NCBI GenBank assembly: GCA_963710575.1
Contig: CAVQAL010000010.1
Coordinates: 150,531-214,530 of the forward strand
Length of the DNA stretch: 64,000 nt
Source of the DNA: an uncultured delta proteobacterium
GTDB lineage: Bacteria > Desulfobacterota > Syntrophia > Syntrophales > Smithellaceae
Direction: 5' to 3'
Each line of letters begins with the position of its first letter. The stretch's first letter is position 1. The notes under the pieces are model-generated. The model was not told where the DNA came from. It made no database searches and saw nothing but the letters and a program-made list of their open reading frames with translations. This document shows positions 19,905 through 37,168 of the stretch, in pieces. The translations under genes and the position numbers were made by a program.

Positions 19905-22484
19905 ATGAAGCTGAATCTGTTGACACTGAAGTTTTCAGGGGAATCATCAACCCTCGAAGCGCCATTTCTGAGAAATTACTTCCGGGTGTCACTTCCCCAA
20001 GTCCGCCTATCTCTAATATTGGGAGCGTTTGTTTACGCTGCTTTCGGCAATTTGGACGCGTTACTAATGCCCGAACAGAAATCCACCATATGGTTTATTC
20101 GTTTTGTTGTCACTTGTCCTGTGTTTATAGGTACTTTTCTAATGTCGTTTTCCAAGTCCTTTGAACGATATATGCAACCTCTTCTGATGAGTAATCTTAT
20201 TCTGGCCGGTGCTGGCATTGTCGATATGATTATAATTGCTCCAACACCGATCAATTATTATTATTATGCCGGCCTTATACTTGTTTTCATGTGGGGGTAC
20301 ACTTTCGTTTGTGTTCGGTTCCTCTGGGCTTCATTAGCCGGATGGGTGCAAGTGGCATTATACGAAATTGCCGCTATCTGGATCAGTCCAATGCCCTATA
20401 ACGTTCTGATCAGCAACAACTTCTTTTTCATCAGCGCAAATGCCATAGGAATGCTTGCCTGTTATTCCATTGAATTTTATGCCCGGCGTGATTATTTCCT
20501 GACTCGACAGTTGGAGCTTGAGAGGGAAAAGATTAGTCAGATTAATCAGGAACTAGAAAGGCGTGTGGAAAAAAGAACAGCGGATTATCGGATCATTAAT
20601 CGAGCGCTGGAAAAGGAAATTGCCGGACACAGGCAGGCGGAGTCCCAAAGGGAGGCTGCACTCGAAGCGTTGCGGGAAAGCGAGGAGCGGTATCGGGTAT
20701 TGGTGGAAGATGCGAACGATATGGTTTTTAGGACGGACAAAAACGGACTTTTCACCTTCGTAAATTCGTCGACGATACGTATTACAGGATACGAGGAAGA
20801 GGCTATTATTGGGAAGCATTATCCTACATTTATCCGTTCGGATATGCGTGATGAAGCCGTTAAGTTTTTCGGCCGTCAGTTCGTAAAGGGGATTAAAAAT
20901 ACATATTCAGAATATCCCATTATTACAAAGGATGGCAGTGAAGTTTGGCTTGGACAGAATACCCAGCTGATCATGGAAGATGGCAATGTTACAGGCTTTC
21001 AGGCGGTGTCCCGCGATATCACCGAACGCAAACGGTTGGAAAAGGAATTGAAGCACAGCGAAGAAAGATACCGTGAACTGAGTATTATCGATGACCTCAC
21101 CCAACTTTATAATGCCAGGCATTTTTACCAGCAGCTTAAAATGGAAATCGACCGGCTGGACCGCCATGAATATCCATTAACCCTTCTCCTGATTGATTTA
21201 GATGATTTCAAGGTGTTCAACGATACTTACGGCCATATTGAGGGAGACCAGGTCTTATTACGGCTCGGCCAGATAATAAAAAGATGTCTTCGCAAGGCAG
21301 ATTCCGCCTATCGTTATGGCGGTGAGGAATTTACGATCATTCTGCCCATGACAACAAGCGAAGAAGGCATCGTTATTGCGGAAAGAATCAAAGAGGAATT
21401 AAAAAAAGAGAATTTTTCTCCAGTGCCTGATAAACACGTCCATCTTACAGTAAGCATAGGGCTTTCGCAGTACAAGAAACAGGAAGACATGAAGGTCTTT
21501 GTTAGCCGGGTTGATCATCTCATGTATCAGGGTAAAAAGGACGGAAAAGACAGGATTTGTTCAGAGTCATATCTTCAAGAGAGAAGAAATAACGAAGTGA
21601 AGAATATAAAAAATTACCTGATGTCGTTTGTGGAACGGGGAGGCCCTGAACCAAGTGAGTATATTGAGCTCAACGATCACTTTTATTCTATAAACTCCAT
21701 GCTTAAAGAGAGTAAGATTTCTCGCGCTCAAATCAGGGAGTTGTGGGCGGCTTGCGGGGAAGCCTTTTCGGAAGGTACCATGCAGGGATTTGTGTGCAAA
21801 AACCCCCATGGTTATCACGGTGATTATGAAATAATGGATAAAATTTATATGGAATGGATTTCATCTCAAAAACATCTTGAAAATTGGGATAAGTTTTTTC
21901 ATTGGCAGGCTGCACCCAAAGCGGTGCGAAACAGGAAAGAATATTTTAAGAGCCTATTATCTGAAATTGACAAATCACCGGTTATAGAACCGGCTGTGTT
22001 AAATATAGGTAGCGGCCCATGTCGTGATATTTATGAATACAAATGTGAACATCCACTTTCAAAGATACATTTTGATTGTCTGGATGTGGATTCGAATGCC
22101 ATAAAATATGCCAAACAACTGCTCAATGGTTCGGATGTTACTTTCTTTTGTGAAAATGCGTTTCGTTTCCGTTCGGAAAAACGATACGACTTAATCTGGT
22201 CTGCGGGATTTTTTGATTATCTTGACAATGAAAAGTTTATATTCTTACTGCGCTCATTAATGAAAATGTTAACAATAAATGGCAAAATGACTATTAGCAA
22301 TTTTTCAACATTAAATCCATCAAGAGATTATATGGAATTTGGGGAATGGTTTTTATTTCATAGGGACATGGACAATTTGACTGAATTGGCCGGTAAAGCG
22401 GGCGCTGATCCTTGTTCAGTTTCAATTGAATCCGAGGAAACAGGGGTTAATCTATTCTTAACAATAGGCAATAACGACGTATAG
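19905..22484 (+). CDS. Membrane sensor: multi-TM domain, PAS, GGDEF diguanylate cyclase, and a C-terminal class-I SAM methyltransferase-like domain
   Basis: 859 aa. About 6 TM in the first 190 aa, a coiled coil, a PAS-like region (ERYRVLVEDANDMVFRTDKNG..), GGDEF with YRYGGEEFTIILP, then LNIGSGPCRDIYEY .. DLIWSAGFFDYLDNEKF (MTase motifs I and post-II). Confidence 0.85.
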   Translation: MKLNLLTLKFSGESSTLEAPFLRNYFRVSLPQVRLSLILGAFVYAAFGNLDALLMPEQKSTIWFIRFVVTCPVFIGTFLMSFSKSFERYMQPLLMSNLILAGAGIVDMIIIAPTPINYYYYAGLILVFMWGYTFVCVRFLWASLAGWVQVALYEIAAIWISPMPYNVLISNNFFFISANAIGMLACYSIEFYARRDYFLTRQLELEREKISQINQELERRVEKRTADYRIINRALEKEIAGHRQAESQREAALEALRESEERYRVLVEDANDMVFRTDKNGLFTFVNSSTIRITGYEEEAIIGKHYPTFIRSDMRDEAVKFFGRQFVKGIKNTYSEYPIITKDGSEVWLGQNTQLIMEDGNVTGFQAVSRDITERKRLEKELKHSEERYRELSIIDDLTQLYNARHFYQQLKMEIDRLDRHEYPLTLLLIDLDDFKVFNDTYGHIEGDQVLLRLGQIIKRCLRKADSAYRYGGEEFTIILPMTTSEEGIVIAERIKEELKKENFSPVPDKHVHLTVSIGLSQYKKQEDMKVFVSRVDHLMYQGKKDGKDRICSESYLQERRNNEVKNIKNYLMSFVERGGPEPSEYIELNDHFYSINSMLKESKISRAQIRELWAACGEAFSEGTMQGFVCKNPHGYHGDYEIMDKIYMEWISSQKHLENWDKFFHWQAAPKAVRNRKEYFKSLLSEIDKSPVIEPAVLNIGSGPCRDIYEYKCEHPLSKIHFDCLDVDSNAIKYAKQLLNGSDVTFFCENAFRFRSEKRYDLIWSAGFFDYLDNEKFIFLLRSLMKMLTINGKMTISNFSTLNPSRDYMEFGEWFLFHRDMDNLTELAGKAGADPCSVSIESEETGVNLFLTIGNNDV

Positions 22485-22745: not shown

Positions 22746-23417
22746 ATGTTCGTTAAAGTAATCAGTATGAGCGTCATTGGCATGGAATCATACCCTGTGT
22801 TCGTAGAGGTGGACACATCCCAGGGTCTGCCACAATTTGCCACTGTCGGTTTGCCCGATGCTTCGGTTAAAGAAAGCAGGGATCGAATCAAGGCTGCCAT
22901 AAAAAATTCCGGTTACCGTTTCCCCCGCAGTCATGTAACTATTAATCTGGCTCCCGCTGATATAAAAAAAGAAGGAACAGGTTTTGACCTTCCCATTGCT
23001 GTGGGCATCTTGGCAGCGGAAGAATTAATTAAAGAAGCCGCTTTGCAGGATTGTTTTTTTATTGGTGAACTTTCTCTCGATGGCAGCATTAAAGGCGTAA
23101 ACGGCGTTTTACCGGCCGCTTTTAAAGCAAAAGAAATCGGCATCAAGTCGGTCTTTGTTCCCGAAAAAAATGCCGCGGAAGCGGCTATGGTGGAAGGGAT
23201 TAACGTCTTTCCGGTGAAAACACTGCCGGATGTTGTGGAATTTTTAGAAGGACGGAGTAATATCGAGCCTGTTTCTTTGGACATAAGTAAAATTTTTCAA
23301 AAAACCCGTAAATATGAGGTCGATTTTAATGAAATAAAAGATCAGAAGCAGGCAATGAGAGCGCTGGAAATAGCGGCGGCTGGCGGCCATAATGTGATTA
23401 CATTATATTCAGTTTAA
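22746..23417 (+). pseudogene. comM: comM/yifB 5' fragment (Lon-protease-like N-domain up to ..AAAGGHNV), truncated by insertion
   Basis: MFVKVISMSVIGMESYPVFVEVD..GLPDASVKESRDRIKAAI..INLAPADIKKEGTGFDLPIAVGILAA..ALEIAAAGGHNV, then 6 foreign codons and a stop. The continuation [10 protein letters not shown].. is at 36293. Confidence 0.9.
23396..23407 (+). repeat. Left junction repeat GATTACATTATA (candidate att core)
   Basis: Matches GATAACATTATA at 36281-36292 in 11 of 12 positions. It sits exactly where comM homology stops. Confidence 0.55.
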
Positions 23418-23551
23418 TCAAAGAACATTCAAAGCAGCTAACCAGCTGCATGGATTAATGATTTCCTTGGAAAGTATAACTACGAAATAAACATAATGTC
23501 AATCTTAATAAAAAATTTTGAAATGTAAGGCAAAAAGTTTCTTCAGGCACT

Positions 23552-23579
23552 TTGATTCAGTCAACGTATATTGTAAAAT
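23552..23579 (+). promoter_or_regulatory. Candidate promoter of the Rep-like gene
   Basis: TTGATT (23552-57), a 16-nt spacer, then TAAAAT (23574-79). Confidence 0.4.
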
Positions 23580-23594
23580 CTAAACATTAAAAAA

Positions 23595-23656
23595 CCGAGA
23601 CGCCCCTATGCATAGGGGTCACGAAGCGAAGACCCGAAAACTTCGCTTCGTCTCGG
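23595..23656 (+). other. Three-way (Y-shaped) hairpin structure upstream of the Rep-like gene: candidate origin or nick site, or a structured 5' leader
   Basis: Outer stem CCGAGA/TCTCGG encloses hairpin 1, the perfect palindrome CCCCTATGCATAGGGG (23603-18). It also encloses hairpin 2: CGAAGCGAAG / 9-nt loop / CTTCGCTTCG (23622-50). Confidence 0.5.
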
Positions 23657-23682
23657 AAGTAATCTATTCGGGAGATGAAAAA

Positions 23683-24885
23683 ATGAAAGTTAACGAAAAA
23701 GAAGCTTACCATTTCGACAGAATCCACATCAACAGCAAGATTGAACCAGAAATATTGAATCAATTATTGCCTATTGCTGAATTAAAAAAGCACTGCAAAG
23801 GATTTGAAATTTATAAGTCACACCCCTTGTTGCTTAAACACAAGTCATTGATGCAGATTACTGCACCGACATTTAAGACAATTATGATACTTCTGGAGTG
23901 CGAGCGACTGATTGGTGATGATTATATTTTTACCAAGATAGAAATTGCCCGTGACATATTTTTTGGTTCCGAAGGGGAAGCTGAAAGAGTATGTTATCAG
24001 CAATATTTGACAATTAGAAAAAAATTTTCTAACGGCTTCGTCTGGGTTCAACGCAAGAAGAAGTCGCACAAAAGATGGTTGAGGGATTATTTTGTAAGGG
24101 GGCTCTTTTCTGACGCAACCTACTACGCTGTCGATTTTAGGCAAATGGAAACAGATGAGCAAGAAAAACCACAGATAGAAGGAGTGAAGGTAAATCGGCT
24201 ATTGCCTGATGCAATCTGCGATGGTGTGTATTATAAAGACAAGGAAGAGGATGAAAAAAAGAGAGCGCACAGAAGATGGTTGAAGGAACGCAGGAAAAGA
24301 GCTCTTCTTTCTGAAGCAACTCTCACTGAAGAATTTAGAAGAAAAAAATATGGTCAGAAAAAAAAGTCTAAACCGCTTAAGAGTTATAAGCTTTATCCAA
24401 GACTATCTAAAATAAATGGTCGTCCTTGTGTTCATGGAGAATGGCAAATTAATTCAACTACATATATTAAGGACATTACAGGTGTAGAGAAAATATCTGA
24501 TCTATTGACTTTCGATTTTGAAGGCTTCTTCAAAAAAATGGATGCTCGGTATATTGTACACGAACGGATAAACCTTAAGGCTCTCGGAATCTTTTTGATC
24601 GGGTATAATGGTAGGAGAACATTGACAGAGCGACAGAAGATGTATGGTCTTGGGCTTGCAGCACAAACTTTTTGCAATCACTTTAACGTGCAAACATATT
24701 CAGAGCTTGTATTGGCATTGAAAAAAGAAATATTGGAAGCGAAAAAGGCAGTAGGAAAAAAATCTCTTTGGCATCAACGGATGCTTGGTTTGAAAAACTT
24801 TAATCGGTTCAAAGTCGCGTATACGCCTTATAATAATAGTAGTATTATTCTTTTTAAACCTTCATTCTACTGTATTTACAGATGA
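23683..24885 (+). CDS. Rep-like protein (possible replication initiation factor family); function not firmly assigned
   Basis: 401 aa from ATG 23683 (GGGAG RBS). The track start at 23608 would translate through the hairpins. FTKIEIARDIFF and KLYPRLSKINGRPCVHGEWQI resemble blocks of phage/plasmid replication-initiator families. This rests on my recollection only. Confidence 0.4.
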   Translation: MKVNEKEAYHFDRIHINSKIEPEILNQLLPIAELKKHCKGFEIYKSHPLLLKHKSLMQITAPTFKTIMILLECERLIGDDYIFTKIEIARDIFFGSEGEAERVCYQQYLTIRKKFSNGFVWVQRKKKSHKRWLRDYFVRGLFSDATYYAVDFRQMETDEQEKPQIEGVKVNRLLPDAICDGVYYKDKEEDEKKRAHRRWLKERRKRALLSEATLTEEFRRKKYGQKKKSKPLKSYKLYPRLSKINGRPCVHGEWQINSTTYIKDITGVEKISDLLTFDFEGFFKKMDARYIVHERINLKALGIFLIGYNGRRTLTERQKMYGLGLAAQTFCNHFNVQTYSELVLALKKEILEAKKAVGKKSLWHQRMLGLKNFNRFKVAYTPYNNSSIILFKPSFYCIYR

Positions 24886-24900
24886 ATCTTCTTTGAATTA

Positions 24901-25265
24901 GATTGGTATTACATAATGGTAAATATGATTGGTATATTGTTATTAATAATTCCTTCTTATGAGACATTTAATAGGAAAGAATTCTTTGTTTGTATGAGTA
25001 TTGATACCTCAGTTTGTTCTAAAAGAACTCTTAGCTTTGGTATTTGATACAGATCATCTCTGGCATTTGTAGAAATGATTTATTGATGTTTGATTATGGA
25101 AAATTTCTTTTCTTCTGGTAACGCTGCTATAATAAATAATTGGTTTCATCTTGATGGTATTTTTATATAAAAGAATTTTGGAATTATCTGAATAATGGTA
25201 TCTCTTTTTTTTCAATCGACTCTGCTGGAATATAAATAATTGCTGAAAAGTCGATAATGGTACTC
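24901..25265 (+). repeat. Iteron-like field downstream of the Rep-like gene
   Basis: Eight same-strand TGGTA cores at 24904, 24917, 24930, 25038, 25116, 25155, 25196 and 25258. Extended forms are GATTGGTAT (24901, 24927) and ATAATGGTA (24913, 25192, 25254). The region is non-coding and AT-rich. Confidence 0.55.
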
Positions 25266-25487
25266 TTATTTAATCTGTCTTTTTGACAGCAGCTCTCTTT
25301 CTTGCTTCTCTTGCTTGTGAAAAAGTGACAAGCTTCCTGTCATCAAACTGGCGTTTATTTCTCGTTTAAATGCCCCTAGAAGCTTAGATGTCATCATATA
25401 CGAAGCGATATAGGCGTTGAGATTTCGTGGTATTTGGCATTCTGTGAGGTAGAGTATAGGGAGACTTGAACTAAAAGACAGGTACAA
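25266..25487 (-). CDS. Hypothetical small protein (last ORF of the minus-strand operon); doubtful
   Basis: 73-aa track ORF with a TTG start and no clear RBS. An internal ATG would give a 43-aa basic peptide. Confidence 0.25.
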   Translation of the reverse strand: MYLSFSSSLPILYLTECQIPRNLNAYIASYMMTSKLLGAFKREINASLMTGSLSLFHKQEKQERELLSKRQIK

Positions 25488-25512
25488 AACAGAAATTCCT
25501 GTTTAGTTGTAA

Positions 25513-25932
25513 TTAAATTTCTTTAAAGCGACTATTCCAAGTCTTGAATTTATTTTTACAGTAATTTTCCAGCGATTGAAAACTGCCAAAATATTGCATT
25601 GATGTTTTTGAAATAGGATTTTTATATTCGCACTTTTCAATAGAATGTTTACGGCAAGTTATAGGCCGATTCTCATAAATAGAACATTTTCCGTTGTATT
25701 TTAAATGAACACAAGAATTATAGATAAGTAAATACCAACCAGAAGAATCTTTAAATGCCTTTATGTTTTTATGCAATAATTGCCACAATAAACCGTCAAA
25801 GTCGTGGATTGTACGAGGGGGATGTATTTTTTCTGTAATGTATTTGCAGCACAATTGATTGCATTTATTACATTGCGATAATAACTTTTTCTCAAGAGCA
25901 TTCTTCTTCATAATAATTTCGGAACGACGCAT
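25513..25932 (-). CDS. YkgJ-family Cys-cluster (CxxCxxCC-type zinc/iron-chelating) protein
   Basis: 139 aa. QCNKCNQLCCKY plus the distal CVHLKYNGKCSIYENRPITCRKH pattern typical of this family. Confidence 0.65.
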   Translation of the reverse strand: MRRSEIIMKKNALEKKLLSQCNKCNQLCCKYITEKIHPPRTIHDFDGLLWQLLHKNIKAFKDSSGWYLLIYNSCVHLKYNGKCSIYENRPITCRKHSIEKCEYKNPISKTSMQYFGSFQSLENYCKNKFKTWNSRFKEI

Positions 25933-26345
25933 GAACTAATTGTAAGCAGTTCAACTACAGCCCATGCAAAGCAAACAATTGTTAGTATATCAAATGCGAC
26001 ATCTATCCATATTACATTTTCATGAGATGCAAAATATTTATATACCGGATGACAGTCTTTACCATGCATTAATGTACATTCATCGCGATAGTACGCAGAC
26101 CATGATATGAACTTGTTCAGGAAGCTAATGAAAATCTGGCATGCTACACCAATGAGAAATAATCTTATTATGAAATTAATGTTCGGTGATTTGAGCAAAA
26201 ATTCTTTTGCGTCTTTGCTCGTTATGAATATTGCAGGAACTGCGATTCCGAATGCTACAAACCACGAGCGAAGTGTTTTATTATATTCGTTGTAAAGTGC
26301 CAGATTGGCATCACGACTAGCTTTAAGTTTCTCTAACTTTTCCAT
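25908..26345 (-). CDS. Small membrane protein (about 3 TM), unknown function
   Basis: Start taken at ATG 26345 (MEKLEKLKASRDANLALYNEY..), which overlaps the stop of the upstream small ORF (TAATG). Its 3' end overlaps the YkgJ-like start by 25 nt. Confidence 0.5.
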   Translation of the reverse strand: MEKLEKLKASRDANLALYNEYNKTLRSWFVAFGIAVPAIFITSKDAKEFLLKSPNINFIIRLFLIGVACQIFISFLNKFISWSAYYRDECTLMHGKDCHPVYKYFASHENVIWIDVAFDILTIVCFAWAVVELLTISSCVVPKLL

Positions 26346-26485
26346 TATAACCCACCCCCAACTGGAATAACAACGCTTAATAATTTCCACCTGACATCGG
26401 AATGAAATCGGATACCTTCTGCAAGTTCGTGATATTCAGCAAGCAAAACTTCCTTGTCGGGAACAGATTGTACTTTGTTTACCAT
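26345..26485 (-). CDS. 46-aa ORF not in the track, unknown function
   Basis: ATG 26485-26483 is preceded by AGGAGAG. Translation is MVNKVQSVPDKEVLLAEYHELAEGIRFHSDVRWKLLSVVIPVGGGL. Its LLAEYHEL..W..L..V.P segment resembles the N-terminus of the next protein (LALYNEYNKTLRSWFVAFGIAVPAIF). Confidence 0.4.
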   Translation of the reverse strand: MVNKVQSVPDKEVLLAEYHELAEGIRFHSDVRWKLLSVVIPVGGGL

Positions 26486-26578
26486 TTTACTCTCCTGTTA
26501 AAAGGAATGGGCTAACGTTCGGATCAGCGGTGGCTGAAAAACATCCAGTGAATACCATGGTTAGGCTTTTTACTGGTC

Positions 26579-27154
26579 TTATAGAGAGTTGAGAGTTTCA
26601 TAATCTTCTCTTGCAAGTATATCCAATCTGTTATTGATTCTTTCAACTAAATCAGGGTCTCTATTTTCAATTATGAATTGTTTGAGCTTCTCTAATGCCT
26701 CAAAAACGTCTTTTGATAAGACATCTACATTTAAGTTTGGGATACCTGAACTTTCAAATATTAATGGGTATCTCGAGCTAGCTTTTGCGATTCCAGAAGC
26801 TTTTGGGAAAAATTGATGAATTAATCCATGCCTAAATAATTTTACAATTTTCTCACAATTGTCAGAGTATATTTGGGGGAATAAACCGATTCTTTCTGAC
26901 ATCAGATATTTGAAGTTTCCCATCGTATCAGTTTTTCTTGGAGTTGCATCATCTCGGGATAGATAACCAAATAAATCAATGACAGCAAAAAGCATCATTG
27001 CAAGTGGCACTGTACAGCCACGCAAGCCAGTTTCTTTATCAGGTCTGATTTCATTTGTGAGTTTATCAATATCTTGCAAAATATACATTGAAACTTCACT
27101 ACTAAAGAATCCTAATACTCTTTCTTTAGACGGTGAGTTTTCGGAGTTTGTCAT
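26579..27154 (-). CDS. Hypothetical 191-aa protein with an Rx4H motif (FRHGLIHQF); possible HEPN-like fold
   Basis: Track ORF with GAGGAG upstream of the ATG. The only recognisable feature is the R-x4-H motif in a predicted all-helical protein. No homology could be verified. Confidence 0.3.
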   Translation of the reverse strand: MTNSENSPSKERVLGFFSSEVSMYILQDIDKLTNEIRPDKETGLRGCTVPLAMMLFAVIDLFGYLSRDDATPRKTDTMGNFKYLMSERIGLFPQIYSDNCEKIVKLFRHGLIHQFFPKASGIAKASSRYPLIFESSGIPNLNVDVLSKDVFEALEKLKQFIIENRDPDLVERINNRLDILAREDYETLNSL

Positions 27155-27194
27155 ATAGTGGTCTCCTCATGTGACGCTCTCGAAATATTTGTTT

Positions 27195-28231
27195 TTAATC
27201 TTTCAACAGTTCCAATACCTGATCAATGGGAACAGCCACTGAATAGCCCGAATTCTGAGTCTCGTGACTACCTTCATTTGTGAATGGAATAAAATTTGTT
27301 ATCAACCCAATACCATTAAAGTATTTATTTGGGAATTTTTCGTCAACCTCTATGACTATTCCCCCGCTCGTGCCTTGGTATGTCGGACAGTCTAGAATGA
27401 TTGTCTTTAATTTATTATTCTTTCCTGCGACAATACCTTTTCTCAGTAATGGTAGCTTAATATCCAGAAAAGCATTGTTGTTACTGATAGACGTCGGATA
27501 ACCAAAGACAAATACGCCATTACCCTCCAAAACATCATCGAAGAGTTTTAAGGTTGTTGCTGCATCTATGCCAAGGACGCCTGTTCCTTTTATCATTTTC
27601 AATCCATCCTCCTGTCTGATCACTTGTTCCCCTGATTCCAGTTTCACAAGCGTCCGATCCTCACCACGGCTACGTCGCTGTTTGGGTGGTACTTCACTTT
27701 GCCTTCACTCAAGAGCTTTTGTAATTGAATTTCAATTTCATTGCTTTCGCCTTTGCTGAAATCTTTTGGGTAAGAGAATAAATTTGCTATCTTGTCCTTT
27801 AATTGAAGAGTTTGTGATTTTTTGTAAAGTTGTTCTACAGCTTGTGCGAACAACGGCTCTTTTGATGTGTTTTGAATTAGCTCAGCTTTGTCTTTTTCTG
27901 ACATAACGCCGTCAAACCTGAGTTTATTTTTCTCGAAATTATAATGTATTCTGTATAAAAGATGGTAAGGGATCGTTAATCCCTTAGGTAAGACCTTAAG
28001 ATCCGTAGAACTCTCATAAAATAGAACGTGTCTTGCGGCGACAAAATAGATAATGTTATCTTTACCTAAATAGAAACCGCTTCCTGTGTTCATTTTTCCT
28101 TTTAATGGTGCACCTAGGTATAGCACTGGATAACTCAGATTGTCATCTGGTAGAGCCCTCAACTTGTTTGCATGCACGGACGGAATAAGAACCATGAACA
28201 CACCTAGACAAGCTATTAGTTTTCTTACCAA
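27195..28231 (-). pseudogene. Trypsin-like (S1/Trypsin_2) serine protease with signal peptide, split by a frameshift at about 27645
   Basis: ORF 27644..28231 carries the signal peptide and the His box (IYFVAARHVL) and Asp box (DVAVVRI). ORF 27195..27647 carries the Ser box (QGTSGGIV). The ORFs abut at cgcTTGTGAaac. Confidence 0.7.
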
Positions 28232-28676
28232 AGAATTATCATTATTTTGCCCTCCAGTTCACACCTCAATTAATATATAAACTTTGCTTTTTCCGATAAG
28301 TTATGTGTCATAATAGCACTATTCATTCTTTTTAAAAGAAGGAAACTACGTTATCTAATTTACTACGGATTGAAATGTTGTATTTTTGATGAGATTGGCG
28401 ATTTGGTGATTACAGAAAGTAATCTTTGTTTTTATTTATTCATACCTAATTCAACAGATATTTTCGATAAGTTCTAAACTAGAGAAAACAATCCATGTAC
28501 TTGATATTATGTAATATTCCGGTTGACATTACGTTCTTCAGGCATCAAACTTAATACATAATAGAGAGATTCTTTTGAGTATCAATCATTTGGAAGAAAA
28601 AAACCTAATGATTTGAGGTGAAAACCGAACAGAAAACTCAATAGAAAATTTTATAAAAACGAAAGGAGAACAAAAA

Positions 28677-29397
28677 ATGAATACTGAATTAGGAAATGTT
28701 ATCAGTTTCCCTGCGAAGACAGAAAAGCGAAACAGGGCAAAAAGAGACGGCAGCAGAGTGAAGAACATTGACGGTGTTAAGTATTTCAATGACAAACAGA
28801 TCAAAATGATCAGGCGAGCTGTCAGGGATCAAGCTGAGGTTGATGAGAAGAAAGGTAATGTGACGGGGATTAAAGAATGGATGGTTATTGATCTTCTGAC
28901 AAGCACAGGGCTTAGAGTTTCGGAATCAGCAAATTTAAGATGTGGAGATTTAAAGCTCGGTTACTCAGAAAGCAAGATATTTGTTCGTGACGGTAAAGGG
29001 CATCAGTCTGCTCATGTCATCATTCCCGACACGCTTAAAAAGCATTGTAAAGCGTTTTTGAGCTGGAAACAGCAGCAGGGTGAGTCTGTTGGCGATGATG
29101 ATTTTCTGTTTATTGGTCAGAGAGGGAATTGGACAAGTCCGGCTATTCAGCAGATCGTGAAGAAATACCTGCGGCAGCTCGGTCTTTATGAACGTGGAAA
29201 GTCTGTACACTCCTTAAGGCATTCGTACGCTGTTGGAACTTTACTCGAAGATGAAGGACTTGAGGGCGGTGCAAAAGCAACTCAGGCACATTTCAATTCA
29301 GTCAACTTTAATTTACGCGGATATAACAGACAAAACGATGGGAATCAAATCAAAGGACTCTGGAACTGAGCAATATTGTCAAACTGTTTTTAAATAG
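28677..29397 (+). pseudogene. Tyrosine recombinase (phage-integrase family) with a frameshift near 29245
   Basis: Track ORF 28677..29369 reads ..HSLRHSYAVG, then nonsense. Shifting frame after GTTGGAAC gives LYSKMKDLRAVQKQLRHISIQSTLIYADITDKTM..VFK*, containing the catalytic-Tyr box, with the stop at 29395-97. Confidence 0.75.
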
Positions 29398-29885
29398 ATG
29401 TAAATACGAAACTTGATGAATTGTCGTCTCTTGCCGCGGAAACAATTACACCTGAATTTAAACGTTTTGGCATTGAGATTATTAATTTCAATATAGAACG
29501 TATTTCGATTCCAGACGACGAGTTGAAAAAATTTCAGGAAATTCTTGGCAGAAGGATGGAAATCGAACAAATCAGTCAGGCTAAAGTGGGTCAGGCTTAT
29601 GTTACCATGAGAACCTTTGACACGCTTGATAAAGCTGCAGAGAATAGCGGTGCAGCAGGTGGTATCATGGCAGGTGGACTTGGATTAGGTGTGGGACTTG
29701 GAGCTGGGGTGCCAATAGGTCAGCAAATGGGACAATCTATGGACATTAAACCACAAGGGCAAGATTCACAGAAAGCAGACGATGACATGACGAGACTGCA
29801 GAAAGCAAAGCAATTATTGGATGCAGGATTAATTACGCCTGAGGAATTTCAGGCAAAGAAAAAGGAAATACTGGATAAAATATAG
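29394..29885 (+). pseudogene. 5'-truncated SPFH/Band-7 (YdjI-like) gene fragment with a Gly-rich linker and C-terminal SHOCT motif
   Basis: The open frame starts immediately after a stop at 29391-93: IDVNTKLDELSSLAAETITPEFKRFGIEIINFNIERISIPDDE.. (SPFH C-terminal part), then GAAGGIMAGGLGLGVGLGAG, then LQKAKQLLDAGLITPEEFQAKKKEIL (SHOCT-like). No N-terminal half exists upstream. Confidence 0.6.
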
Positions 29886-29890
29886 CCTAT

Positions 29891-30648
29891 ATGAAAACTG
29901 ATAACATATCAAAAGCATCAATTGTTGGTTTTTTTATAACGGCAATCACGGTTGTGATATTGCCGCTCCTCATAATACCTGCCGAACATAGATCAGAGTA
30001 TTTCTGGTTTAAGATTCTCTGGGTTGAAGTTCTTGCCGCTTTAGCATGGGGATACTTAGGTGGAGGCATGCAATCAATCCTATATTCCTCCACGCAAGGC
30101 AACAGATCGGCTGCTTTAATACCTGCTTTGGGCATAACGGTTTTCTTTTATATAGGATTCAGCTTAATCTTTTTGCTATCCAGCTCTTATAGTTCCGATA
30201 ATTCCTGGTTAAATCGATATCATTTGGCACTGCAGGTCTTTATAACTTTTCTATTTTGATCACTAATATTGGTCTTTATACTATTGCAATAATCACTTCA
30301 AAAGATTCAAAGACTTTTTCATCAGAAGTAAAAACCCCTGAACAATTGGCTGTAATGCTTCAGTCGGAGGAAACACGGCTCTCAATAATTCCAGAAGCTA
30401 CAAAAGAAGTAAAACTTTTAATCCAATCATTAAAATCTCTAAGAGAGAAAATATCATACTCTTTGCCCACTATTCAGATTATGGGAAATGATCCTCAGTA
30501 TATCGATTTTGTGGGACAAGTTAACACATTTATTGGCTCTGTCAAAAATTGTAGTGATGAGTTGGCATTAAAGAAAAATGGTCTACGAGAAAAGGCAGAA
30601 TCTTTATTACGCCATGTTGATGTGATAGCTGCAAACTCAAAAAAATAG
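29891..30648 (+). CDS. 5-TM membrane protein with a cytoplasmic helical tail, split in the track by a frameshift in a T-run (30254-30257)
   Basis: ORFs 29891..30259 and 30256..30648 overlap at cTATTTTGAtc. Joining them gives one continuous TM helix ..LALQVFITFLF-LITNIGLYTIAIIT... Confidence 0.5.
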
Positions 30649-30661
30649 GAAGGTATGAATT

Positions 30662-31021
30662 ATGGGGCAATGTCCTTATTGCAGTAACCAGATTAAAGAC
30701 GGTGAGCGTTTCTGTCTGGGTTGTGGAAGGCAATTGGATGTAGGAGGGATTACAGAAGAAATTAAATCAGGAGGTATTTCTGATCTTAAAAAATGTTTTG
30801 GTTCATTTCCAGTAACACAGATCGATTGCTATCTTTGTGCTGATGAACAGAAATGTGCTAACTTTACTGCTAGCATAAAACAAGATAAAATATTGTCGAA
30901 ACTTAATAAAATCGATGACATTAATAATTCTCTGGCAAATATGAATAATACCTTAGCAAATATGAACACGTATCTCAAATCTATAGATGCCAATATTGTT
31001 TTATTGACTAGAAAGAAGTAG
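30662..31021 (+). CDS. Zinc-ribbon protein with a coiled-coil, Asn-rich C-terminus
   Basis: MGQCPYCSNQIKDGERFCLGCGRQL (CxxC..CxxC). C-terminal NNSLANMNNTLANMNTYLKSIDANI repeats. Confidence 0.6.
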   Translation: MGQCPYCSNQIKDGERFCLGCGRQLDVGGITEEIKSGGISDLKKCFGSFPVTQIDCYLCADEQKCANFTASIKQDKILSKLNKIDDINNSLANMNNTLANMNTYLKSIDANIVLLTRKK

Positions 31022-31031
31022 GTAAAATTGC

Positions 31032-31856: not shown

Positions 31857-31967
31857 ACCTATCAATAAAACTTGTTCTAACGACGGATATTAGAGTTTAA
31901 TATTCATTAGATTTTTTTATTACCAAACTCTATTCTCAAGGGTATTTATAAAAGGAAAGGAATATAT

Positions 31968-33032: not shown

Positions 33033-33181
33033 GTAAGATCGATTGCCTGAAGCAGATTGTTCATCGCTTGTAAAGGAAAGATGGCAGACAGCATGAATAA
33101 TAAAGATTTATATTCAACATACCAGCGTGTTAAAAAGAAATGCTGTCAAGAACAACTTGGTAAATCAAAGGGAGGGGAGAA

Positions 33182-33979: not shown

Positions 33980-34229
33980 CTTAGCTAACATTTCATTGCA
34001 CGTTACTCTATTTCAATCGACAATCTTTAGTTTCATGAATCTATTGACTTGCTGGCGAAAGTAACAAGCACCTTTCTTCCGGTTTACATTTCTGTTTTCA
34101 GGCATTAGTCTTCTTATCAAAAGAGAAACAAAATTTTCGCATCAAAAATAACAGCATTTTTATAAAAATAATTCGGCTCGATTAGAGCAACAGGGGTGTA
34201 TAATGTAAGTGAGGGAGGGGATATTTATT

Positions 34230-36278
34230 ATGAGAAAGATAAAAAATTTAAAAGCACCTAAAGAAAATATGCCGGGACAACGATCTACTGAACCGCTGAG
34301 AGTTAATGAGGAATACGAAAAACCTTCAAAAGCATACAGTTACATAAGATTTTCTACGCCGGAACAACAAAAAGGGGATTCTCTTAGACGACAGACTGAG
34401 CTTTCAGAGAAATGGGCTAAAGATCAAGGTCTTGTATTAGATGACAGTTTAAAGCTTCAGGACTTAGGGAAGAGTGCATTTTCTGGAAAACATAGAAGCG
34501 ACGGGGCACTTGGACAATTTTTGAAATTGGTTGAAATGGGCAAAATCAAAAAGGGATCCGTACTTCTGGTTGAATCTCTTGATCGTCTCTCTCGTGAAGA
34601 GATCACCATAGCACTGAAACAATTTCTGGCAATCATTGATAAGGGAATAAAAATTGTAACTCTTATTGATAACAAGGAATACACTCAAGAAACAGTTAAT
34701 ACAAGTTTTAGTGAACTTATTGTTTCACTTACGATCATGGCACGTGCGCACGAGGAATCAAAAACAAAATCTATGCGACTAGGAAAAGCATGGGAAGGCA
34801 AAAGGAAAATTGCAAGCCTCAAGAAACTCACCGCTCGATGCCCTGCATGGCTTAAACTCAATGACACAAAAACTCAGTTTGACATTATTGAAGATCGGGC
34901 GGGAATAGTTGGTAAAATATTTGACATGAAACTTTCTGGCAAAGGTGCAACAGCAATTATACGTGAACTCAATAATACAAATGGAATTTGGATGCCAAAA
35001 AGTAAGGATAAAAGAAAGCTAGTAGTGGGATGGCGGGAAAGCTACGTCAAAAAAATCCTTAAAAATAGTGCTGTAATCGGTGAATATCAACCACATCAAT
35101 TATCGAAAGGTAAAAGAGAACCTGTCGGAGACCTAATGATTGATTACTATCCTTCAATAGTTGACAAAGACGTTTTCTATCGGGTTCAGGAACAGCTTAG
35201 ACAAAACACTTATAAAGGTGGACAAACTGGCACAGTCTCAAACCTCTTTTCTCATATTGTAAAATGTGGTTACTGTGGTGGCTCTTTTGCGTATATTGAC
35301 AAAGGAGATGCTCCGAAAGGTGGTCAATATCTTGTTTGCGATAGAGCGCGCCGGGGATTAGGTTGTTGCAAAACATCGGTAAAATATAGTGAGATTGAAC
35401 GTCTGGTTCTTACTTATTGTAAAGGACTTCATGCGCAAGACATTTTGGACAAGAATGATGAAACCGCCATTAATCTATTAAAAATGAAGCATGAAGGGGT
35501 AATGGGTAAATTGATATCAATTAGCAAAGAGATTGAAAACATTGCCGACAGCATTACCTCAACCGCAGATAAAAGGGTTCGAGAAATACTTGAAAAGCGA
35601 ATGACAGAGCGGTTTGATAAACAAGATTATTTAAACAAAGAGAAAGATCATCTGAAACAAGAAATTGATACTGAATCTAGGACTTTTGAAAATGCGCAAT
35701 TGACATTAGATTCCCAAAGGGAACTTATGACGTTACTAGAAAAAGAAAAGACAGGTAAAAAAATAATTGACTTAAGACTGAAGCTCCGGAATGAAATAAG
35801 AAAACTTATTGATAGAATTGTAATCTATCCTGTAGGCCTTCATTTTGTTACTCACGAATTCGCTCAAAAAGCATTAGAGGACTTGTCAGAGTTTTTCCAA
35901 GAAGGAACTAAGGAATATTCGGATATTAAGAAATATTATCATGATCGTCTTGAACACCCAAAAGAATTTCGTTTATTCAAAATCTTTTTTAAATCAGGTA
36001 GCGTTCGTACTATTTATCCAACGCGAGAGAAATTTGGCATTCCTTTAAGCCTTGATTTCGACAATGAAGAAAAAGTTATTTATCTTCAAAATCTAGGACT
36101 AGATGGAAGAGTGATTTCTGAAATATATGATGATGGAGGATGCACAGTAAAGCACTACAAAAAATTAAAAGGAACAGATGGAAAAGAGGTTTTTCAAGAA
36201 ATTATTGATACCGAAAGCAAAAAGAATAAGGTAATAGCTAAAGAGGCATTACGATTTGCACAAGGTGTATTTAAATAG
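34230..36278 (+). CDS. Large serine recombinase (resolvase domain + recombinase domain + zinc ribbon + coiled coil)
   Basis: [20 protein letters not shown] (catalytic Ser box), [10 protein letters not shown], recombinase-domain block [20 protein letters not shown], and zinc ribbon [18 protein letters not shown] moved the start from GTG 34209 to ATG 34230 (GAGGGAGGGG upstream). The stop at 36276-78 lies 2 nt before the junction repeat. Confidence 0.9.
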
Positions 36279-36280
36279 GA

Positions 36281-36292
36281 GATAACATTATA
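36281..36292 (+). repeat. Right junction repeat GATAACATTATA (candidate att core)
   Basis: Matches 23396-23407 in 11 of 12 positions. It is immediately followed by comM sequence ATGATCGGTCCGCCCGG. Confidence 0.55.
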
Positions 36293-37168
36293 ATGATCGG
36301 TCCGCCCGGTTCCGGTAAAAGCATGCTGGCGAAAAGACTGCCGACTATTTTGCCCGATCTTTCCTTTGATGAAGCTGTTGAAGTAACAAAAGTATTTTCC
36401 ATAGCCGGTTCCTTAAATAAAGATGAAATGTTAATCGCTGTGAGGCCGTTTCGTTCACCGCATCACACGATATCCGATGCCGGTCTGGTTGGAGGTGGCC
36501 AGACACCGCGCCCTGGAGAAATAAGTCTCGCTCATTTGGGTGTCCTTTTTCTGGACGAACTTCCCGAATTCAAGAAAAACGCGCTGGAAGCCCTACGCCA
36601 ACCGTTGGAGGACGGCACCATAACAATTACGCGTTCTTTGGTAACAGCTTCTTTCCCCGCGAAATTTATGCTGGTGGCGGCAATGAATCCCTGTCCCTGC
36701 GGTTATTTTGGCGACCGCGTCCACACCTGTCGCTGCAGCCCTCAGCAAATTCGTCAGTATCAATCTAAAATATCGGGGCCGCTGTTGGATCGAATAGATT
36801 TGCATATCGAGGTGCCTTCAGTAAAATACCGCGCTCTGTCCGGTAAAGAAATGGGCGAATCTTCCGCAACAATCAGAGAGCGCGTAAACAAAGCGCGTGA
36901 TCTGCAAAAAAAGCGTTTTGGCCATAAAGGCATCCTTTGTAATGTCCGGATGACGGAAAAGCAAATTCGTAACTTCTGTCCAATTGACGAAGAAGCGCAT
37001 AAGCTTATCGAAATGGCCATTGAAAAACTGGGGCTGAGCGCCCGGGCGGTAAACCGGATATTGAAAGTCTCCCGCACTATCGCCGATCTGGAAAACAAAG
37101 AAAATATTGAACCTGCTCATGTTGCCGAAGCAATTCAGTATCGAAGTCTTGATCGCAGTCTAATTTAA
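36293..37168 (+). pseudogene. comM: comM/yifB 3' fragment (AAA+ Mg-chelatase-like ATPase domain and C-terminal domain)
   Basis: [21 protein letters not shown] (Walker A), [10 protein letters not shown] (Walker B), ..NPCPCGY..C.C.. and C-terminal ..[13 protein letters not shown]. It continues the fragment that ends at 23400. Confidence 0.9.

Follow-up and report, generated by a model that had tools for sequence, protein, structure and literature searches.

Introduction

Replication modules in which repeats follow the gene of the initiator are known from the rep-ori of SaPI/PICI elements and from pMV158, with its 'bind' direct repeats, and the initiators of these systems are helicases or HUH proteins. 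In plasmids of the I-complex, which also have an antisense Inc RNA, a pseudoknot activates translation of the initiator gene (repZ/repA). Initiators of small Firmicutes plasmids, such as pT181 RepC, pC221 RepD/RepDE and pSTK1 Rep, belong to Rep_trans (PF02486). What defines Rep_trans and MOB_T enzymes (PMC6499999) is a set of three acidic, metal-binding residues, located in motifs N', I and IV, together with a motif III tyrosine that is catalytic. MOB_T relaxases, as in ICESt3, Tn916 and ICEBs1, have an N-terminal HTH domain followed by PF02486 (PMC6499999). Translation controlled by pseudoknots, both in I-complex rep leaders and in translational riboswitches, is treated in PMC8053102, PMC10724649 and PMC11625349.

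The region described here lies in a window of 64,000 nucleotides, the whole stretch of DNA that was analysed. We put at roughly 0.55 the probability that a 12.9-kb integrative element has here its module for replication or DNA processing, with an RNA leader in front of the gene and an origin behind it. The analysis shows the fold resemblance of the protein, the covarying RNA with its pseudoknot, the enrichment of a short repeat and the ends of the island; that the protein nicks DNA, in which direction the leader acts on translation, and that the repeats serve an origin are inferred.

An excisable island in comM

The gene comM is split in the window by a 12.9-kb integrative element (approximately 23399-36289), and the Rep-like module forms the left end of this island, inside comM. 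The comM/yifB 5' fragment (22746..23417, + strand) comprises the first ~219 codons and runs into the island up to a stop codon; it matches TIGR00368 (YifB, E = 5e-74) over profile positions 1-216 of 499 and contains the ChlI domain. The 3' fragment (36293..37168, + strand) encodes the AAA+ and C-terminal domains (Mg_chelatase and Mg_chelatase_C), and matches Mg_chelatase (E = 1.4e-83) over profile positions 27-205 of 207. When ...CATAATGTG-AT is joined to AATGATCGG..., the comM frame is restored and reads HNVIMIGPPG. The left junction, attL, was placed from the sequence at 23397..23398, and the right junction, attR, was placed at 36290..36291 from the restored frame and a contig end, with AT as the putative crossover dinucleotide in both. 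That contig (ENA metagenome contig_103122, 13,721 nt) covers exactly the island, from its start at 23398 to its end at 36291; relative to the window it has indels, with two gap openings, and the recombinase gene called on it encodes 567 aa.

A gene for a large serine recombinase with Resolvase, Recombinase and Zn_ribbon_recom domains occupies the right end of the island (34209..36278, + strand). Recombinase domains, a split target and a target that is restored by excision are therefore all found here, as in an integrative element with a large serine recombinase, and on these sequence features the island is one inserted into comM by that enzyme. The initial annotation had taken the island to be excisable, and the split comM, the recombinase and the metagenome contig with exactly the island ends bear this out. 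If this reading of the island holds, its exact ends and its putative crossover dinucleotide are known, excision would restore a competence gene, and excision, copy number and replication are measurable from existing metagenome reads.

A protein family with a predicted Rep_trans-like fold

The gene at 23683..24885 (+ strand) encodes a Rep_trans-like protein of an uncatalogued family. The 401-aa ORF reported initially is present, its length being 400 aa, or 401 codons with the stop codon. GGGAG precedes the start codon at 23683, and the mechanical start of the ORF, at 23608, falls within the upstream hairpin. The window protein has no sequence match in Pfam, NCBIfam, PHROG, PADLOC or the PDB. 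A word-indexed homologue search retrieved only three to four relatives, and the family became visible through an exhaustive HMMER search, which found at least 456 cluster representatives (clusters at 50% identity; E <= 1e-3). Its members are typically ~300 aa long, similar in size to the Rep_trans initiators. Homologues occur in Smithellaceae and Geobacteraceae MAGs. Homologues also adjoin integrases, tyrosine integrases among them, and HTH_17/AlpA excisionase-like genes in modules of the int-xis type; at one locus (L006) the homologue lies just beyond the last chromosomal gene.

The comparison with Rep families that had been suggested initially gave no support at the level of sequence profiles. 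None of 78 family members matched PF02486, even at E <= 1, and a Pfam scan of the same members gave scattered weak matches to unrelated families, each in at most two of them. A search of the PDB with the family profile found nothing and missed 4cij and 4cwe. With hhalign, the 78-sequence profile aligned to RepC with a probability of 1%, and to a seven-sequence Rep_trans alignment (a thin template made from plasmid records) with 0.3%, neither being significant; the sole local match sits exactly at IEIAxD / LDLAFD.

Structure prediction gave a different picture. An earlier model from three sequences was unusable (pLDDT 52.7), whereas the AlphaFold model from 78 sequences reached a pLDDT of 85.3 and a pTM of 0.77. 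In a Foldseek search of the PDB the Rep_trans initiators 4cwe, 4cij and 4cwc took ranks 1, 2 and 4, with probabilities of 0.85-0.96 and 331-397 aligned columns, compared with ~130 columns for all other matches. The best viral matches, in BFVD, were Inoviridae REP, the strongest structural match of all (E = 2e-5, probability 1.0), and G2P. TM-scores were below 0.5 in both structure searches, and Rep_trans and inovirus Rep were the only full-length structural matches in these two independent libraries. The Rep-like assignment thus finds support in a resemblance of the predicted fold, whose nearest neighbours are Rep_trans and inovirus Rep and which also recalls the MOB_T relaxases, but none in the sequence, where no method links the protein to Rep_trans. 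Unlike an inovirus, the island has no phage structural genes, the protein has no PHROG match, and neither the protein pattern nor the leader DNA pattern was found in 2.9 million viral contigs.

The family motifs follow the order of those in pT181 RepC: FDRIxIN ~ RIEFNPN, IEIAxD ~ LDLAFD, TxYFG ~ TKYFG, YxRxSK ~ IYNKK and HxEWRI ~ WRVEIE. By this comparison the acidic, T-x-Y-x-G, Y-x-(K/R) and (R/H)-x-E motifs are collinear with those of the Rep_trans initiators. Near-invariant positions are D12, E87/D91, Y148, Y238-x-R240 and H251-x-E253, for which the RepC counterparts, in order, would be E/D, D146, Y178, Y191-x-K193 and E214, an equivalence drawn by inspection and not from any significant alignment. 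The blocks noted in the initial annotation are all present, namely FTKIEIARDIFF (residues 83-94), KLYPRLSK (236-243) and CVHGEWQI (249-256); they fall on the best-conserved columns of the family. As picked initially, in two blocks with KLYPRLSK and CVHGEWQI taken together, they are the candidate catalytic motifs. Judged by the predicted model, the family looks like a remote offshoot of the Rep_trans nicking enzymes, with D12, E87/D91, Y148, Y238-x-R240 and E253 as candidate catalytic residues, and a nicking activity is predicted from this. It differs from Rep_trans proper in having no sequence similarity detectable by HMMER or hhalign, and in residing in integrated islands of metagenome-derived bacteria instead of small Firmicutes plasmids.

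The missing sequence link and the low TM-scores would also suit a protein that is no nuclease and has only the alpha/beta scaffold in common with these enzymes, acting as a DNA- or RNA-binding regulator or as a recombination directionality factor of the serine recombinase, and the gene does lie at the opposite end of the island from the recombinase. We regard this as very unlikely, given that the only full-length structural matches in two libraries were Rep_trans and inovirus Rep, and that the residues D, E, D, Y, Y-x-R and H-x-E, all invariant or nearly so, occur in the Rep_trans motif order. Homologues are also found alongside tyrosine integrases, and a role specific to a serine recombinase is therefore unlikely.

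The window member has an internal diverged duplication of 201 nt (24055..24320, + strand; repeat families D7 and D3, and family alignments). It gives rise to a Lys/Arg-rich insert of ~75-85 aa (residues ~150-232) that separates TYY from the YxRxSK motif, which is a further difference from the Rep_trans initiators. Low pLDDT values at residues 154-185 and 219-226 fall in this insert, and as it interrupts the candidate catalytic region near its centre, the window protein could be impaired.

Whether such an enzyme would serve vegetative replication or transfer is a separate matter. Like the MOB_T relaxases and the Rep_trans relaxases of streptococcal IMEs, it is encoded by an integrated, excisable element, its gene is immediately preceded by a structured region, and a dual role in transfer and rolling-circle maintenance, as described for those enzymes (PMC6499999, PMC9371924, PMC7563843), is possible. 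Integrative elements are mobilised by Rep_trans-type relaxases (PMC6499999, PMC7563843, PMC5704250). The protein might accordingly be a relaxase and the island an integrative mobilizable element, whose oriT is nicked for transfer by way of a conjugation pore that a co-resident element provides, rolling-circle copying being incidental. Genes for excision and integration are present in the island, but none for partition or a helicase was recognised, and the homologues lie in int-xis-type modules, all of which fits a relaxase. Most MOB_T relaxases carry an N-terminal HTH domain (PMC6499999), however, and the window protein has no HTH or PF02486 match in Pfam, its model beginning directly with the beta-sheet domain. 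Furthermore, no coupling-protein or type IV secretion domains were found among the island ORFs, and tblastn found no relatives among 72,556 plasmids. On balance we think a relaxase less likely than not. Two more differences from the MOB_T relaxases are that there are no conjugation genes nearby and that the structure 5' of the gene has the behaviour of an RNA leader and not of an oriT.

If the assignment to a nicking enzyme is correct, a sizeable family (at least 456 clusters at 50% identity) sits outside all domain libraries, and rolling-circle replication or mobilisation functions would extend to integrative elements outside the Firmicutes, where such elements are poorly annotated.

A probable three-way-junction leader precedes the gene

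The 62-nt three-way structure proposed initially at 23595-23656 was recovered by folding, with a minimum free energy of -34.7 kcal/mol (z = -4.3), and 0 of 200 shuffled sequences folded equally well. This leader (23595..23656, + strand), which is supported by the fold, by covariation across seven loci and by a covariance model, has an outer stem CCGAGAC / GTCTCGG (23595-23601 / 23650-23656) that encloses two hairpins. Hairpin 1 is GCCCCUA-UGCA-UAGGGGU (23602-23619), and hairpin 2 is GAAGCGAAG-ACCCGAAAA-CUUCGCUUC (23623-23649, loop 23632-23640).

A search beside homologues, as had been suggested, found the same architecture 5' of the gene in six other loci. In an alignment of the seven, made by hand to fit the structure, 95.4% of cells are paired and both sides have changed in 25 of 32 pairs, compared with 34-53% paired and 4-6 pairs changed on both sides in slid controls. 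Locus L030 is an independent seventh copy, found with a covariance model that did not include the pseudoknot described below. G-U pairs occur, one of them at the base of hairpin 1 in six of the seven sequences, and they restrict the fold to the sense strand. Of ~18 loci examined, 7 have the leader; elsewhere the gene directly follows another ORF. Against Rfam 15, only a tRNA reaches the gathering threshold within the window, and nothing overlaps 23595-23680 at E <= 5.

Three other identities were considered for the Y element and rejected. It is not an intrinsic terminator, as no T-run follows it. A guide or bridge RNA of the IS110 or OMEGA type was dismissed since the protein has no such domains and has a Rep_trans-like fold. 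Nor is it part of an att site, being 196 nt from the junction here and far from any junction in the other loci.

Predicted pairing of the leader with the ribosome-binding site

The loop of hairpin 2 contains CCCGAA (23633..23638, + strand), which pairs with UUCGGG (23667-23672) in a pseudoknot whose 3' strand (23667..23674, + strand) overlaps the Shine-Dalgarno sequence GGGAG (23670-23674). Across the seven loci, in the same hand-made alignment, this helix is 93.9% paired and five of its seven pairs covary, so that a conserved structure with compensatory changes, including those in the pairing to the ribosome-binding site, lies directly 5' of the ORF. The duplex in the window has a predicted energy of -9.6 kcal/mol. 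Cognate combinations of loop and tail form 6-7 bp (-8.1 to -10.6 kcal/mol), and non-cognate combinations mostly 2-4 bp (-2 to -7 kcal/mol). L030 retains the pseudoknot with a new sequence, even though the search model had none.

As the loop covaries with the Shine-Dalgarno segment, the Y element is best read as a translational-control RNA leader, absent from Rfam, and not as a nick hairpin. The initial annotation had left it as either, and of the two the leader is favoured by the covariation at the ribosome-binding site, whereas a nick site fares worse, with CT'AA not conserved in the loops.

The case for an element acting as DNA deserves to be set out in full. The sequence cut by Rep_trans and MOB_T enzymes is CT'AA, located in a hairpin loop above a G/C-rich stem (PMC9371924), and the oriT of ICESt3 lies directly upstream of the relaxase gene (PMC6499999). 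The Y element could similarly be a nick site (double-strand origin or oriT) that presents the point of cleavage in the loop of hairpin 2, like pT181 IR-II or the ICEBs1/ICESt3 oriT, or else a single-strand origin of the displaced + strand. The stem of hairpin 2 is indeed G/C-rich, with a length of 9-10 bp, CTAA is found in its loop (CCTAATC) in L006, L011 and L015, and the stem covariation and G-T wobbles would equally fit a displaced sense strand that is single-stranded DNA. The loops of the window (ACCCGAAAA), L008, L019 and L030 have no CTAA, however, only CC being conserved among the loops, and the CTAA of the other three is explained by complementarity to GAUUAGGAGG; in L018 the same sequence context as in the L006 type gives a plain hairpin that sequesters the Shine-Dalgarno sequence. 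Covariation between loop and ribosome-binding site, always at the Shine-Dalgarno sequence, has no rationale at the DNA level. The 13 wobble cells of the six-sequence alignment become A-C mismatches on the other strand, which argues against a double-strand cruciform, and many family members have no such element at all. A DNA site is thus unlikely, and the RNA leader remains our reading.

The leader resembles those of the I-complex plasmids in that a loop pairs at the ribosome-binding site of the initiator gene, and the translational riboswitches preQ1-II/III and SAM-II in having a pseudoknot that sequesters the Shine-Dalgarno sequence. Compared with the I-complex, the pseudoknot here overlaps the Shine-Dalgarno sequence and more likely represses translation. 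It also differs from both groups in its three-way junction, in the invariant CC of loop 2, in having no leader peptide, and in having no known ligand or partner and no Rfam family; no antisense promoter was found beside it. If correct, this is a new structured RNA with good covariation whose three-way junction pairs at the ribosome-binding site, and it offers a directly testable model of how the production of a DNA-nicking enzyme is restrained by its island.

An AT-rich stretch with TGGTA repeats follows the gene

Like the Rep_trans initiator genes, which have their own cis-acting DNA behind or before them, this gene is flanked by a candidate origin, an AT-rich non-coding stretch of 627 nt (24886..25512) with a GC content of 27-31% and nine same-strand TGGTA cores. 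The gene-free stretch probably extends to 25512, and no gene was called in it on two other contigs of the same element (L004 and L005). The claim of eight same-strand TGGTA cores in AT-rich DNA after the stop codon was confirmed: within 24886-25265 (380 nt, 27% GC) there are eight, starting at 24904, 24917, 24930, 25038, 25116, 25155, 25196 and 25258, compared with 0.56 expected (~14-fold), and none of 5000 dinucleotide shuffles reached eight. The ninth is at 25428, and all lie on the + strand (9 vs 0). The first begins 19 nt after the stop codon and opens a tandem of three cores 13 nt apart. The longer unit ATAATGGTA occurs three times and GATTGGTAT twice. At least three repeats in one orientation are thus present in AT-rich DNA adjoining a rep-like gene, as in iteron-type origins, and the stretch may be an origin.

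TGGTA was also looked for beside homologues, as suggested initially, and is absent there, no homologous locus showing the enrichment; the cores can therefore be put forward only as putative iterons. They may instead be sites of another factor, part of a 3' untranslated RNA, or remnants of slippage or duplication. Their core of only 5 nt with a weak flanking consensus, the position of the stretch as an AT-rich spacer between convergently oriented genes, and the form of classical Rep_trans origins, which have an inverted repeat beside the nick and not direct repeats (PMC9371924), all speak for one of these. Their strict orientation and roughly 14-fold enrichment, and the 13-nt tandem right behind the stop codon, speak against it, as does the position of the non-coding stretch, which is kept 3' of the gene in eight loci, the window included (446-820 nt). 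The stretch is AT-rich (24-33% GC) in six of the eight loci, those with measured composition. Sequence conservation among these stretches was not found, but some have repeats of their own, L019 with three copies of CATAAGGAT and one inverted copy, and L016 with four of CTTCCTT. We consider it possible, though less than probable, that the TGGTA cores are not sites of the Rep-like protein.

Short repeats of one orientation, in AT-rich DNA immediately behind the gene, recall the SaPI/PICI rep-ori and the pMV158 'bind' repeats, from which the window differs in its very short unit that is not conserved among relatives. No strong hairpin or CT'AA nic motif was found in the AT-rich stretch, and the island non-coding DNA as a whole has no CT'AA nic hairpin, in contrast to Rep_trans origins; a single weak match lies inside a gene, on the - strand. 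A weak inverted repeat, ATCGACT...AGTCGAT (25215..25255, + strand; repeat I2), lies between two copies of ATAATGGTA and has a DNA fold of -5.6 kcal/mol (z = -2.0); a nick or unwinding site here is speculative.

Proposed mechanism

In the replication or DNA-processing module that we favour, the protein would cut a single strand of the excised, circular element, using its tyrosine while its acidic residues hold a metal ion, and the nick would prime rolling-circle copying. The AT-rich stretch would be the likeliest location of the origin, with the TGGTA repeats as putative binding sites of the protein. The Y element would act at the RNA level, as the 5' end of the transcript, and through the pairing of its loop CCCGAA with UUCGGG at the Shine-Dalgarno sequence would set the level at which the nickase is translated, most likely keeping synthesis of a potentially harmful enzyme low until the pseudoknot is opened.

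A bolder version makes the Y element a dual-use switch, in which the RNA gates translation of the nickase and the same sequence, as displaced single-stranded DNA, is a recognition or termination site. The RNA switch might respond to a small ligand, to the protein that it controls or to an RNA acting in trans, and the copy number of the excised island would be coupled to initiator synthesis through one structure. We think this quite improbable. In a weaker form, the leader could represent a new riboswitch-like or protein-responsive class of RNA dedicated to a new rolling-circle enzyme family of integrative elements in anaerobic bacteria of the Desulfobacterota type.

Upstream of the leader, the promoter-like pair TTGATT-16-TAAAAT noted initially is present at 23552..23579 (+ strand) and agrees with the consensus at 9 of 12 positions. 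Alone it is not above chance, the region having 11 such sites compared with 7.7 +/- 2.9 in shuffles. A transcript from this pair would begin a few bases 5' of the leader.

The Rep-like gene belongs to an uncatalogued family with a predicted Rep_trans-like fold

The four features from which the initial annotation was built, namely promoter hexamers, a Y-shaped structure, an open reading frame (ORF) with blocks recalling replication initiators and a field of TGGTA repeats, are all present in the sequence, and its interpretation as a whole is partly supported. The Rep-like ORF (23683-24885, plus strand) encodes 400 aa and its start codon lies 8 nt past GGGAG; the longer mechanical ORF start at 23608 falls within the hairpin. 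As the region contains 11 promoter-like sites against 7.7 +/- 2.9 in shuffled sequences, the TTGATT-16-TAAAAT at 23552-23579 carries no weight alone.

The protein has no match in Pfam, NCBIfam, PHROGs, PADLOC or the PDB sequences, and a word-indexed homologue search returned only two relatives. Exhaustive searching with HMMER raised this number to 456 cluster representatives at E <= 1e-3 (116 at E <= 1e-30), and members of this family are almost all of ~300 aa. The comparison with Rep families suggested by the initial annotation gave no Pfam match for the window protein and none to Rep_trans, the rolling-circle initiators of PF02486, among 78 members, nor did any other Pfam family recur consistently among the 78. 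Conserved columns are D12, E87 and D91 (IEIAxD), T146-x-Y148 (TxYFG), D273, Y238-x-R240-x-S242-K243 and H251-x-E253-W, and both ORF blocks picked out initially fall among them. The window protein is atypical, as an internal tandem duplication of 201 nt, now diverged (24055-24120 versus 24256-24320) and encoding K-x-H-(K/R)-R-W-L ... L-(F/L)-S-(D/E)-A-T, has produced a basic, Lys/Arg-rich insert of ~75-85 aa that is missing from typical members. The insert separates TYY from the YxRxSK motif, within the candidate catalytic region.

The structure predicted with 78 sequences (pLDDT 85.3, pTM 0.77) was compared with the PDB using Foldseek. Rep_trans initiators (4cwe, 4cij and 4cwc) take the top three full-length places, at ranks 1, 2 and 4, with probabilities of 0.85-0.96 over 331-397 columns, TM of 0.37-0.43 on the target and a large rmsd; the remaining PDB matches cover only ~130 aligned columns. 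Of the viral models, an Inoviridae REP (E = 2e-5, probability 1.0) comes closest, together with a G2P. RepC of pT181 was taken from the plasmid record and then aligned with more distant Rep_trans proteins, and the invariant motifs RIEFNPN, LDLAFD, TKYFG, IYNKKxE and WRVEIE have counterparts in the same order in the new family (FDRIxIN, IEIAxD, TxYFG, YxRxSK and HxEWRI). Rep_trans and MOB_T enzymes, the latter being relaxases of Rep_trans type, are defined by three acidic residues (motifs N', I and IV) and the catalytic tyrosine of motif III (PMC6499999). The new family has candidate residues for each of these. An hhalign comparison of the new family with Rep_trans gave nothing significant, and its sole local match sits exactly on IEIAxD / LDLAFD. 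The initial Rep-like assignment is upheld by fold and motif order and not by sequence statistics; on that footing we read the protein as a distant, uncatalogued relative of the Rep_trans nicking enzymes, and probably itself an enzyme of this type. The protein family is new, and its enzyme fold is already known.

The Y-shaped element is a probable RNA leader

The 62-nt element at 23595-23656 folds at -34.7 kcal/mol (z = -4.3), a value equalled by 0/200 shuffles. Its outer stem encloses hairpin 1 (GCC...GGU, 4-nt loop) and the 9-10-bp hairpin 2, with a CAA-like junction between them. When looked for beside homologues, as had been proposed, the same architecture was found directly 5' of the gene in five loci (L006, L008, L011, L015 and L019), and a covariance model of the six sequences, with no pseudoknot included, recovered a seventh copy in L030 (58.6 bits) and no other over 174 kb of the window and loci. 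Rfam contains no matching family. The leader is missing where the gene closely follows another ORF (L007, L009, L010, L012, L014, L016-L018, L020, L022 and L031). In the seven-sequence alignment, which was made by hand and is to that extent biased toward structure, though its helices have no internal gaps, 95.4% of cells are paired and both sides have changed in 25 of 32 pairs; with partners slid by one to three columns as a control, 34-53% are paired and 4-6 pairs changed on both sides. G-U pairs, one of which closes hairpin 1 in six of the seven sequences, restrict the fold to the sense strand.

The decisive evidence is a fourth helix, in which the loop of hairpin 2 complements a segment ~25 nt downstream that closes with the two leading G of the Shine-Dalgarno sequence (SD). 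Five versions that differ in sequence all keep this pairing: window CCCGAA / UUCGGG-AG (23633-38 pairing with 23667-72), CCUAAUC / GAUUAGG-AGG (the loop as in L006, L011 and L015), CCAGUAA / UUACUGG-AGG, CCUGAU / GUCAGG-AGG and CCUGAG / CUCAGG-GAG. Cognate duplexes are of 6-7 bp and -8.1 to -10.6 kcal/mol, whereas non-cognate combinations mostly reach 2-4 bp and -2 to -7 kcal/mol, and shuffled loops match the observed duplex length in 0.7-4% of trials per sequence. Because pairing with the ribosome-binding site is meaningful only in RNA, the Y element is best read as RNA, and we place the probability that it is a conserved leader with an SD pseudoknot at about 0.75.

The initial annotation had offered a nick site as well as a leader. 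Enzymes of the Rep_trans and MOB_T groups cut at a CT'AA that a G/C-rich hairpin exposes in its loop (PMC9371924), and in ICESt3 such an oriT directly precedes the relaxase gene (PMC6499999). The hairpin 2 loop of L006, L011 and L015, CCTAATC, contains CTAA; CTAA is absent from this loop in the window, L008, L019 and L030. Since CCTAATC exactly complements GAUUAGG-AGG, and the same context is found in L018, we regard CTAA as a by-product of the ribosome-binding-site pairing and a DNA-level role on the displaced sense strand as unlikely. The RNA leader is therefore the part of the proposal that is retained; the motif is new and its regulatory logic already known.

In L018, which has no Y leader, a 9-bp hairpin (2308-2334, GCUGACCUC...GAGGUCAGC) sequesters the SD of an HTH_17 (excisionase-like) gene, the first of the operon holding the Rep-like homologue, and is a simpler route to the same end as the pseudoknot. 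A box, (T/C)(G/A)ACGTATA, occurs 29-36 nt upstream of the leader in four of six loci compared (window 23563-23569, L006, L011 and L015), with GATTCAG further upstream in three loci, and may be a conserved promoter element or operator.

Repeats downstream of the gene

The 380 nt past the Rep-like stop codon have 27% GC and contain eight TGGTA cores, all on the plus strand, against 0.56 expected (0/5000 shuffles had as many). The first three are at 13-nt intervals, and the extended units are ATAATGGTA (three copies) and GATTGGTAT (two copies). In two further contigs carrying this element, no gene is called across 24886-25512, so the non-coding stretch is probably 627 nt long and includes a ninth TGGTA. 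The repeat field described initially holds for the window, yet the enrichment, though strong, is absent at homologous loci and private to this element.

Gene-free stretches also follow the gene in L006 (675 nt), L008 (548), L011 (791), L010 (820), L018 (702), L014 (479) and L019 (446). Their GC content is 24-33% in six loci (window, L006, L008, L011, L014 and L019) and 49% in L010, and there is no sequence similarity among them. The L019 stretch has its own repeat, CATAAGGAT, in three direct copies and one inverted (1240-1249, 1483-1496, 1526-1535 and 1567-1578), and L016 has CTTCCTT four or five times, which hints that repeats at this position are element-specific. Between two ATAATGGTA copies of the window stretch there is just a weak inverted repeat (25215-25255, z = -2.0). 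An iteron or origin role for the TGGTA repeats is plausible, and the most economical reading would be an origin with element-specific binding repeats; the stretch is a tentative candidate for one.

The module lies at the left end of an island in comM

Relatives of the Rep-like protein come from metagenomes and from MAGs assigned to Smithellaceae and Geobacteraceae, and none was found in the plasmids and viral contigs searched. Their neighbours include tyrosine integrases and HTH_17/AlpA excisionase-like genes, and in L006 the relative stands immediately past the last chromosomal gene. This layout is that of a replication or mobilisation module of integrative elements. In most leader-bearing loci (L006 7486-7875, L011 319-735, L015 165-578 and the contig of P0009) a co-oriented Cys-rich ORF of ~130 aa, faintly matching zf-C4pol, occurs immediately upstream; the window has none, since its module directly adjoins the island end.

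Directly upstream of the module is the 5' part of comM/yifB (22746-23417), encoding the first ~219 residues of a YifB/ComM ATPase of ~500 aa, and the gene resumes at 36293 (to 37168), its halves being separated by 12.9 kb of island. The right end of this ordinary serine-recombinase island encodes a 689-aa large serine recombinase (34209-36278) with Resolvase, Recombinase and zinc-ribbon domains. From the junctions, the crossover dinucleotide would be the AT at 23397-98 (left) and 36290-91 (right). An AT-AT crossover would reunite the flanks as ...CATAATGTG-AT-AATGATCGG..., regaining the comM frame HNVIMIGPPG; the predicted attP is GGAGATAACATT-AT-TACATTATATTCAG and the predicted attB GGCCATAATGTG-AT-AATGATCGGTCC. 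A metagenomic contig (ENA ERZ25039480 contig_103122, 13,721 nt) corresponds to window 23398-36291, crossover to crossover. As it spans exactly this interval, it represents either the island excised as a circle or, in a presence/absence polymorphism, the branch that has the island, and under both readings the island ends are exact and mobility is recent. The boundaries in comM and this contig therefore make the Rep-like module the leftmost of the island. With the split comM and the recombinase they bear out the excisable island of the initial annotation, which might also replicate once excised.

The best promoter-like site of the region (23502-23473, minus strand, TTGACA-18-TATACT, 11/12) is directed outward from the left end and would run antisense to the comM 5' fragment when the island is integrated and to the recombinase gene if it is circular. 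Just upstream of comM, as chromosomal context, lies a gene (19905-22484) whose 859-aa product joins PAS-GGDEF to a C-terminal methyltransferase domain, an unusual combination.

Over 6 kb, 9 mismatches and 5 indels separate the window and ENA island copies. Furthermore, 833 nt of the ENA contig (L004 5992-6824) are missing from the window at 29387-29397, so that a Band_7/SPFH-SHOCT gene has lost its 5' half (337 aa in the ENA contig versus a 154-aa C-terminal ORF, 29421-29885, in the window). A trypsin-like protease gene (27195-28231, minus strand) is a single ORF of 358 aa in the ENA contig. The window has instead two ORFs that overlap in different frames, for which a frameshift or a sequencing error in one copy or the other could account. 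PADLOC gave no match for the cargo other than a weak PDC-M35A for the protease. Mid-island, a 230-aa ORF (28677-29369) matches a tyrosine recombinase over its catalytic part only (Phage_integrase, E = 2e-13) and is a second, possibly truncated recombinase beside the serine recombinase. Cargo at 30662-33032 comprises a series of zinc-ribbon/double-zinc-ribbon membrane proteins and a TPR protein.
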